This document shows, one piece after another, positions 29,291 to 29,932 of a stretch of DNA of 64,000 nt. Within the stretch, counting starts at the first letter, position 1. Each line of letters starts with the position of its first letter. The translations under genes were made by a program, and so were the position numbers. Source of the DNA: an uncultured Acidobacteriota bacterium (GTDB lineage: Bacteria; Acidobacteriota; JAQAZP01); assembly GCA_963836075.1 (NCBI GenBank), contig CAWIIB010000009.1, positions 3,330,442-3,394,441 on the forward strand, in the 5' to 3' direction. Under the pieces are notes generated by a model. The model saw nothing but the letters and a program-made list of their open reading frames with translations, was not told the DNA's origin and searched no databases.

Positions 29291-29932
29291 ATGATCTGCG
29301 CAGATTCCATGCATTTGCTCCTGGAGACAGCAGGCTCGGGAAGCCTGTCGGTTCCACGGCCAGGTGCTTCCACAAGAGGCCCGGAGGATCCCGCCAGACC
29401 CCTGTGGCTCGAAATCCCTCCTGGCGTGAGCTATCTGACTATGGAGAAGGACGGATACCCCCGTTTGGACCAGGATCCACCGGAAGGAGCCAGCGGCTTC
29501 GTGCTGCTCGAACCGATCAGCTGGGACCAGGGCGACCGAGTGCTTGCAATCAATATGCGGCCAAAATCGCTGCGCGTCAACGGGAAAATTGCACCCCCCG
29601 TGATTTTACTGAAAGCGGGTGACGAGCTGCTCTTCAGCCCGGCCAGCGGATATGTGGCGCACGTGGCGGTGTTCAACAGCGGGGCCGTTGGCACTCTGTC
29701 GGATGAGGAGACGGAAGTGAGGTGCGCGATCTGTTTGAACACGTTCGAGATGGGGGCCCGGGTCTATGTGTGCCCTGGTTGTAAAAAGCCATTTCACCTC
29801 GATTCAGAAGATCAGCCGGAGGAGACCCGGCTGGTCTGTGCCCGTCCGGGCAACAGGTGTCCCATCTGCCGGACGCCGATGAATTTTGAGGCTGGCTACA
29901 CCGAGGTCCCGGAGTGCTTCCGGGGGCACTGA
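29291..29932 (+). CDS. zinc-finger protein with RING-like/treble-clef Cys cluster; candidate E3-like component
   Basis: RBS GGGAGGTGA; C-terminal C-x2-C-x12-C-x2-C-x4-H-x13-C-x6-C-x2-C (RCAICLNTFEMGARVYVCPGCKKPFH...CARPGNRCPICR); possible FHA-like segment ...SLRVNGKIAPPVILLKAGDELLF... Confidence 0.45.
   Translation: MICADSMHLLLETAGSGSLSVPRPGASTRGPEDPARPLWLEIPPGVSYLTMEKDGYPRLDQDPPEGASGFVLLEPISWDQGDRVLAINMRPKSLRVNGKIAPPVILLKAGDELLFSPASGYVAHVAVFNSGAVGTLSDEETEVRCAICLNTFEMGARVYVCPGCKKPFHLDSEDQPEETRLVCARPGNRCPICRTPMNFEAGYTEVPECFRGH

Follow-up and report, generated by a model that had tools for sequence, protein, structure and literature searches.

A conserved FHA-fold and RING-type protein as a candidate E3 in a bacterial ubiquitin-like conjugation cassette

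A gene in a 64,000-nucleotide stretch of DNA from an uncultured Acidobacteriota bacterium (GenBank assembly GCA_963836075.1, contig CAWIIB010000009.1, positions 3,330,442 to 3,394,441 of the forward strand; the whole stretch is referred to below as the window) encodes a protein that combines a predicted FHA-fold N-terminal domain with a C-terminal RING-type zinc finger, and this FHA-RING protein is probably the E3-type ligase, or adaptor, of a conserved and unusually complete cassette of Planctomycetota for the conjugation of ubiquitin-like proteins (Ubls). RING-type E3s are a hallmark of eukaryotic ubiquitination, and the predicted domain arrangement mirrors that of the checkpoint ligases RNF8, CHFR and Dma1. 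The E3 candidacy, which had been proposed in a first-pass annotation of this DNA, is upheld as a candidacy by the RING-type fold of the zinc finger and by the E1, E2 and JAB peptidase genes that surround it. Moreover, the FHA-RING family is compact, conserved and unannotated, and thereby provides a test case for a bacterial RING E3.

The open reading frame (ORF) starts with ATG, encodes 213 residues on the forward strand, and is preceded by a GGAGG sequence (29277-29281) 9 nucleotides upstream of the start codon. It also opens a same-strand run of genes that ends at 39175, in agreement with its designation as the first gene of an operon. A word-index homology search with the protein returned only itself and one relative of 83% identity; an exhaustive HMMER search of 1.84 billion cluster representatives detected 415 homologous representatives at an expect value (E) <=1e-3 and 195 at E <=1e-10, nearly all of them approximately 200 residues long and aligned end to end. 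Conservation within the family was determined by column counts in an alignment of 64 sequences, in which the initiator Met1 is conserved in 98%, indicating that the annotated start codon is right, and in which P207 of the C-terminal tail is invariant. All database copies of the family that bear any name are designated 'hypothetical protein', and the relatives with organism names belong to the Gemmataceae and other Planctomycetota. Judged by these alignments, the FHA-RING proteins are a real, conserved two-domain family, and the zinc-ligand pattern of the window protein is not a product of chance, since it is accompanied by 415 homologous representatives and near-invariant ligands.

The C-terminal third of the protein reads VRCAICLNTFEMGARVYVCPGCKKPFHLDSEDQPEETRLVCARPGNRCPICR, and its translation contains the ligand series C145-x2-C148-x12-C161-x2-C164-x4-H169-x13-C183-x6-C190-x2-C193, which matches exactly the pattern given in the first-pass annotation. 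C145, C148, C161, H169, C183, C190 and C193 are invariant in the family and C164 is present in 62 of the 64 sequences, while the modal ligand spacing (2, 12, 2, 4, 13, 6, 2) is that of the window protein. The earlier remark that this spacing is not that of a canonical RING holds for the third ligand pair, H-x13-C, which is split by an acidic insertion of 13 residues. The best Pfam match of the window protein was Prok-RING_1 (PF14446; E 1.4e-5), the family of prokaryotic RING fingers of Ubl-conjugation operons reportedly described by Burroughs, Iyer and Aravind in 2011 (Mol Biosyst 7:2261). Prok-RING_1 was also the commonest family match among the relatives, with 35 of 64 at E <=0.01 (best 8.6e-7), and the 83%-identical relative scored 27.4 bits against it. 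In addition, the zf-RING_2 alignment spans the whole profile (E 0.004), and the PHD, C1 and zinc-ribbon families of Pfam score below the RING families. When the window protein was compared with the sequences of solved structures in the PDB, the RING-H2 domain of Arkadia was the best match (E 0.0018), followed by RNF24, RNF165 and EL5; the Arkadia alignment pairs C164 with RING ligand 3, H169 with ligand 5, and C190 and C193 with ligands 7 and 8. The AlphaFold2 model of the protein (predicted local distance difference test (pLDDT) 80.5, predicted template modelling score 0.71) superposes on solved RING-H2 domains in a fold search. The binuclear RING-type reading proposed earlier is thus supported by eight conserved ligands and by fold similarity to solved RING domains, and the C-terminus is a RING-type C4HC3 binuclear finger with an insertion in its third ligand pair. 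In agreement with this split finger, a review assigns to prokaryotic RINGs the C4HC3 order and a longer insertion (PMC11354881).

The positions that would face an E2 were assigned their canonical RING equivalents by sequence alignment to Arkadia. Canonical RING fingers contact their E2 through an aliphatic residue between ligands 1 and 2, a Pro after ligand 7, an aliphatic residue four positions after ligand 8, and a linchpin Arg or Lys. The first of these corresponds to residue 147 (I147 in the window protein), which is V, L, I or F in 58 of 64 sequences; P191, directly after ligand 7, is kept in 48 of 64, and residue 197 (M197), four positions beyond ligand 8, is I, V, L or M in 62 of 64. 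The gene context provides the partners that such a finger would require: beside the RING-type gene lie those for an E1, for an E2 of UBC fold that carries a catalytic Cys, and for a JAB peptidase, and the neighbourhood expected of Prok-RING_1-type proteins, consisting of E1, E2, JAB and candidate Ubl genes, is present around it.

We infer the following chemistry for the cassette from the conservation of the ligands, the predicted folds of both domains and the E1/E2/JAB context. The ThiF-type E1 would activate a cassette Ubl by adenylating its C-terminal Gly and hand it over as a thioester to Cys147 of the E2, and the C4HC3 finger would dock the charged E2 in RING-H2 fashion via I147, P191 and M197. 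The FHA-fold sandwich would serve as a second binding surface that brings a target, or another cassette component, near the E2~Ubl thioester. Maturation of the tailed Ubl and reversal of its conjugation would fall to the JAB/JAMM peptidases, and the Mpa-like AAA+ ATPase encoded in the same cassette would act on the conjugates.

Several observations weigh against an E3 function. None of the curated RING profile thresholds was passed by the window protein: Prok-RING_1 scored 25.4 bits, below its curated cutoff of 29.1, over profile positions 3-33 of 54 only, zf-RING_2 scored 17.8 bits versus a cutoff of 27.3, and zf-RING_11 scored 16.6 bits versus a cutoff of 27. The 13 residues within the third ligand pair contrast with the 2-3 residues of canonical RINGs, the linchpin Arg (R194 in the window protein) occurs in only 12 of 64 relatives, and the best PDB sequence match of the family profile was a PHD finger, KMT2D PHD6 (E 0.007), with the same RING-H2 proteins listed after it. 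Furthermore, the cross-brace arrangement (ligand pairs 1 and 3 at one zinc site, pairs 2 and 4 at the other) is that implied by fold matches of a predicted model, it is by their context that both candidate Ubls were assigned, and bacterial RING-E3 operons are still rare and uncharacterised (PMC10557695, PMC11601596).

Part of this evidence would suit a zinc module that acts as a non-catalytic, PHD-like or treble-clef binder, in which case the protein would be a scaffold or receptor without E2 activation. Such a protein could, for instance, bind a Ubl, one of its conjugates or a peptide tail and direct it to the AAA+ ATPase. The C4HC3 ligand order is formally a PHD/RING-variant order, DC1/C1_2 matches were obtained for 20 of 64 relatives, and an AAA+ unfoldase, which needs substrate receptors, is encoded in the same operon; the KMT2D match and the poorly conserved linchpin Arg point the same way. 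The combination of a C4HC3 finger with H-x2-C spacing and a fold closest to PHD domains was not found in the window protein, and a receptor of this kind is considered unlikely.

Besides the zinc finger, the E3 assignment involves the N-terminal domain, which the first-pass annotation had described as possibly FHA-like on the basis of the segment SLRVNGKIAPPVILLKAGDELLF (residues 93-115). The predicted domain displays the eleven-stranded FHA beta-sandwich fold, against which an N-terminal strand (residues 6-13; 29306-29329) probably packs. At the level of sequence profiles the resemblance did not hold, as a Pfam search of the window protein gave no FHA match at E <=1, and PDB sequence searches with the protein and with the family profile returned no FHA chain. 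An hhalign comparison with four FHA sequences matched residues 85-116 only (E 8e-4, probability 24%), covering the 'vNG...L..GD.i.G' strands and coinciding with the segment noticed earlier; this comparison, like the hhalign comparisons with ubiquitin/ThiS and E2 references, is a lead rather than a test. The model thus supports an FHA fold for the N-terminal domain. Its conserved residues within the family are L49, L-E-P at 73-75, L84, R-V-N-G at 95-98, P102, L107, D111 and H124.

Phosphothreonine binding by canonical FHA domains depends on a Gly-Arg pair, a Ser-x-x-His motif and an Asn of the beta6-beta7 loop. These positions were mapped onto the family by sequence and predicted strands, and the column counts revealed no conserved counterparts: the best candidate for the Arg, R58, is found in 28 of 64 relatives, residues 66-72 contain no conserved Ser or His, and the Asn loop is shortened, with a variable residue (K92 in the window protein) at the aligned position. 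The phospho-dependent target recognition that had been proposed is therefore not supported, and judging from the sequence alignment the FHA-fold domain probably recognises its target by a mode other than classical phosphothreonine binding. The same findings bear on a special case of the E3 reading, a classical phospho-dependent FHA-RING ligase comparable to RNF8, CHFR or Dma1, in which the FHA domain would read phosphothreonine marks set by Ser/Thr kinases and thereby couple kinase signalling to Ubl tagging. The predicted fold and domain order would accommodate it, but the missing profile match and binding residues argue against it, as does the absence of any kinase or phosphatase gene consistently linked to the cassette among the compared loci, and such a ligase appears quite unlikely. 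Finally, a simple or double zinc ribbon, acting as a nucleic-acid-binding or structural factor unrelated to the E2, is highly improbable: it has in its favour sub-threshold matches to DUF2614 (E 9e-4) and Zn_ribbon_4 (E 1e-3) and DZR matches in 4 of 64 relatives, but all ribbon matches are below cutoffs and weaker than the RING matches, neither fold-search list contains a zinc-ribbon structure, and a binuclear cross-brace accounts better for the invariant His and the interleaved ligand spacing than two ribbons in sequence would.

Table 1. Coordinates of the FHA-RING gene, its domains and the other features of the cassette in the window.
Feature	Position	Strand	Basis or remark
Divergent gene, 422 residues, weak N-terminal Cro/C1-type helix-turn-helix (HTH)	27343..28611	-	HTH_26 E 0.0015, below cutoff
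AT-rich intergenic/regulatory spacer	28612..29290	.	GC content 0.41 vs 0.64 for window
FHA-fold and RING-type protein gene, cassette gene 1	29291..29932	+	ATG-started ORF, 213 residues
Divergent FHA-fold beta-sandwich, residues ~38-135	29402..29695	+	Predicted fold
C4HC3 RING-type binuclear zinc finger, residues ~141-197	29711..29881	+	Eight ligands, C145-C193
Conserved C-terminal tail of FHA-RING protein	29882..29929	+	Column counts; consensus G-Y-x-Y-x-P-E
E1-like adenylating enzyme, 415 residues	29944..31191	+	ThiF E 5.4e-24; PADLOC E1-E2 models
UBC-fold E2, 225 residues	31268..31945	+	Predicted model, pLDDT 91.5
Conserved protein, 271 residues, no assigned function	31950..32765	+	Position kept between loci
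Candidate Ubl 1, 100 residues	32779..33081	+	Invariant T-H-L-G carboxy-terminus (3-locus alignment)
Probable JAB peptidase, 396 residues	33172..34362	+	JAMM-like E222...H293-x-H295...S324-x-x-D327
AAA+ ATPase, 595 residues	34340..36127	+	Pfam AAA E 4.8e-14; Prot_ATP_ID_OB_C E 6e-4
Candidate Ubl 2, 134 residues	36105..36509	+	Conserved A-G-E-K-G and 3-11 residue tail (3-locus alignment)
Conserved protein, 316 residues, no assigned function	36503..37453	+	Position kept between loci
JAB/JAMM peptidase, 302 residues	37440..38348	+	Prok-JAB E 5.9e-8, 33 bits vs cutoff 25
Second ThiF-family E1-like protein, 276 residues, last cassette gene	38345..39175	+	ThiF E 6e-16

The proteins encoded downstream of the FHA-RING gene (Table 1) were compared between loci designated L001-L004 and L007-L009. 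The 415-residue E1 contains a conserved CPAC motif, Cys210 within S-C-E and a Cys-rich C-terminal extension, according to an alignment of four loci. In the 225-residue E2, H134-x-N136 is near-invariant and C147 invariant; this protein gave no profile match in Pfam and no PDB sequence match, and it resembles eukaryotic UBCs more than known bacterial E2s. The 271-residue protein that follows had no match in Pfam, NCBIfam, PADLOC, PHROG or PDB sequences, and its position is occupied by a gene for 279-284 residues in L002 and L007-L009 and by a 145-residue call in L003. The 396-residue protein has no Pfam match, but its JAMM-like motif is kept in three loci, with H293-G-H295 in the window protein, and these residues make it a probable second JAB/MPN+ peptidase of divergent sequence. 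A Cys-rich insertion was observed between its HxH and SxxD motifs.

The 595-residue AAA+ ATPase has an OB domain of the proteasomal-ATPase type and matches the proteasome ATPase (Mpa/ARC) model TIGR03689 over residues 62-559 (E 8.4e-25), far below the cutoff of that model, and the cassette contains no gene for a 20S proteasome or other chambered protease alongside it. An ORF of 1090 residues on the reverse strand (34196-37468), antisense to the genes for the ATPase, candidate Ubl 2 and the 316-residue protein, was rejected as spurious, being typical of high-GC DNA. The 316-residue protein was without a match in Pfam, NCBIfam, PADLOC, PHROGs or PDB sequences, and a gene for approximately 298 residues is found at its position in the other loci. 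The 302-residue JAB peptidase additionally matches the model of PRTRC system protein A (E 4.2e-12), below the model cutoff. The gene after the cassette (39295-40059) lies on the opposite strand.

Size, a terminal Gly, and position and context make the 100-residue protein and the protein encoded at 36105-36509 candidate Ubls. No sequence match of either candidate to ubiquitin, ThiS or MoaD was obtained, and sequence methods detected no beta-grasp fold; candidate Ubl 2 displayed a weak register match to residues 22-54 of ubiquitin (hhalign E 0.02, probability 2%). The listed TTG start of Ubl 2 overlaps the end of the AAA+ gene, and alignment with L003 suggests the ATG at 36174 (MADERRR...) as the probable true start; the L002 homologue was called at 62 residues only. 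The segment 36105-39175, encoding the Gly-tailed protein, the 316-residue protein, the JAB peptidase and the short ThiF protein, looks like a separate Ubl/JAB/E1 module, and two conjugation modules may have fused to form the cassette.

The cassette order, including the divergently oriented gene for approximately 415 residues, recurs in L002, L003, L007/L008 and L009, and the RING-E1 gene pair is also present in L001 and L004. The order of the 12-gene unit (27343-39175) is kept while its flanks differ in the window, L002, L003, L007, L008 and L009, with a thiamine pyrophosphate enzyme/enoyl-CoA hydratase, rubredoxin, an M48 peptidase, an epimerase and a PP2C phosphatase among the flanking genes, varying by locus. 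Because the gene order is maintained between variable flanks, these data suggest that the unit is a self-contained, horizontally moving cassette. A genome scan with the alignment of the AAA+ ATPase retrieved two Planctomycetota metagenome-assembled genomes and one unrelated match. As a system, the cassette found no counterpart in PADLOC, PHROGs or NCBIfam, and Rfam had no match within the window.

The 422-residue protein encoded divergently upstream shares 41% identity with the corresponding proteins of L002 and L003, and a gene for approximately 415 residues occupies the same divergent position in L007-L009. The unusually long, AT-rich spacer that separates the HTH-like gene from the FHA-RING gene is also found at five other loci (L002, 1584-2103; L003, 9252-10000; L007, 4248-4822; L008, 4267-4841; L009, 1777-2525), where the spacers measure 520-749 base pairs, and in every example it is 12-23 percentage points poorer in GC than its own locus. 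The spacer of the window contains 4 promoter-like sites versus 1.9 expected. Alignment of the spacers displayed recurring TGGCA/TGCCA-type blocks, which could be operator or promoter elements.

If the biochemistry of the proposed E3 holds, the cassette would provide a tractable bacterial model of RING-E2 activation and of Ubl tagging coupled to an AAA+ machine, as well as a data point on whether E3-dependent ubiquitination predates eukaryotes. A more far-reaching possibility, which we regard as rather unlikely, is that bacteria have in this cassette a full and self-contained equivalent of the 'tag and unfold' pathway of eukaryotes: the FHA-fold/RING E3 would choose the targets, the eukaryote-like UBC E2 would attach a Ubl to them, JAMM peptidases would edit these tags, and an Mpa/Rpt-like AAA+ ring would process the tagged proteins. 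Were this true, the FHA-RING arrangement would either be of ancient origin or have been reinvented independently by Planctomycetota, and an inducible module for conflict or defence would be consistent with the sporadic occurrence of the cassette, with its changing flanks and with its HTH-linked regulatory spacer.

Among known systems, the operons with Prok-RING_1 proteins are comparable to the cassette in that a small binuclear RING-type finger is encoded beside E1, E2, JAB and Ubl genes. According to PMC4197634, which cites Burroughs et al., the prediction of prokaryotic RINGs linked to E1, E2, JAB and Ubl genes dates from 2011; related operons are reported there for Planctomycetes, Actinobacteria and Acidobacteria. 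In contrast to those proteins, the window protein and most of its relatives stay under the threshold set for Prok-RING_1 and align with no more than the first half of its profile. The window protein also has an N-terminal FHA-fold domain, and its cassette is much larger, with two each of E1s, candidate Ubls and JABs as well as an AAA+ ATPase. The operon of Caldiarchaeum subterraneum and Asgard archaea shares the E1, UBC-like E2, RING-type protein, Ubl and JAB/Rpn11-like peptidase (PMC5654768, PMC3082918), and the small archaeal RING protein, which was shown to stimulate its E2, is the only experimental precedent (PMC5654768). However, that RING protein consists of a RING-H2 (C3H2C3) on its own, with no FHA domain attached, and the operon consists of five genes without an AAA+ ATPase in another domain of life.

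The eukaryotic ligases RNF8, CHFR and Dma1/Dma2 have the predicted FHA-RING domain order in common with the window protein, and the resemblance is one of architecture and fold. In contrast to these ligases, with which no sequence relationship is detectable, the window family lacks the canonical phosphothreonine-binding residues, its domains are separated by approximately 5-10 residues rather than a long coiled-coil linker, and the ligand order of the window protein is C4HC3 instead of C3HC4. Bil, the type II cyclic oligonucleotide-based antiphage signalling system (CBASS) with Cap2/Cap3, and Bub are likewise sporadic bacterial operons with an E1, an E2, a Ubl and a de-conjugating peptidase (PMC10557695, PMC11601596), and in line with this the PADLOC E1-E2 models match the 415-residue E1 of the cassette. 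A full-text literature search for FHA-RING proteins in bacteria returned eukaryotic ligases and proteins only, the 2011 Burroughs survey being outside its reach. The kind of system, a Ubl operon with a RING E3, has thus been known since 2011, whereas the FHA-RING architecture and the cassette look like a new variation on it; what sets them apart is the sub-threshold relationship to Prok-RING_1, the FHA-RING order, and a gene set in which an E1, a candidate Ubl and a JAB each occur twice alongside a eukaryote-like E2 and an Mpa-like ATPase.
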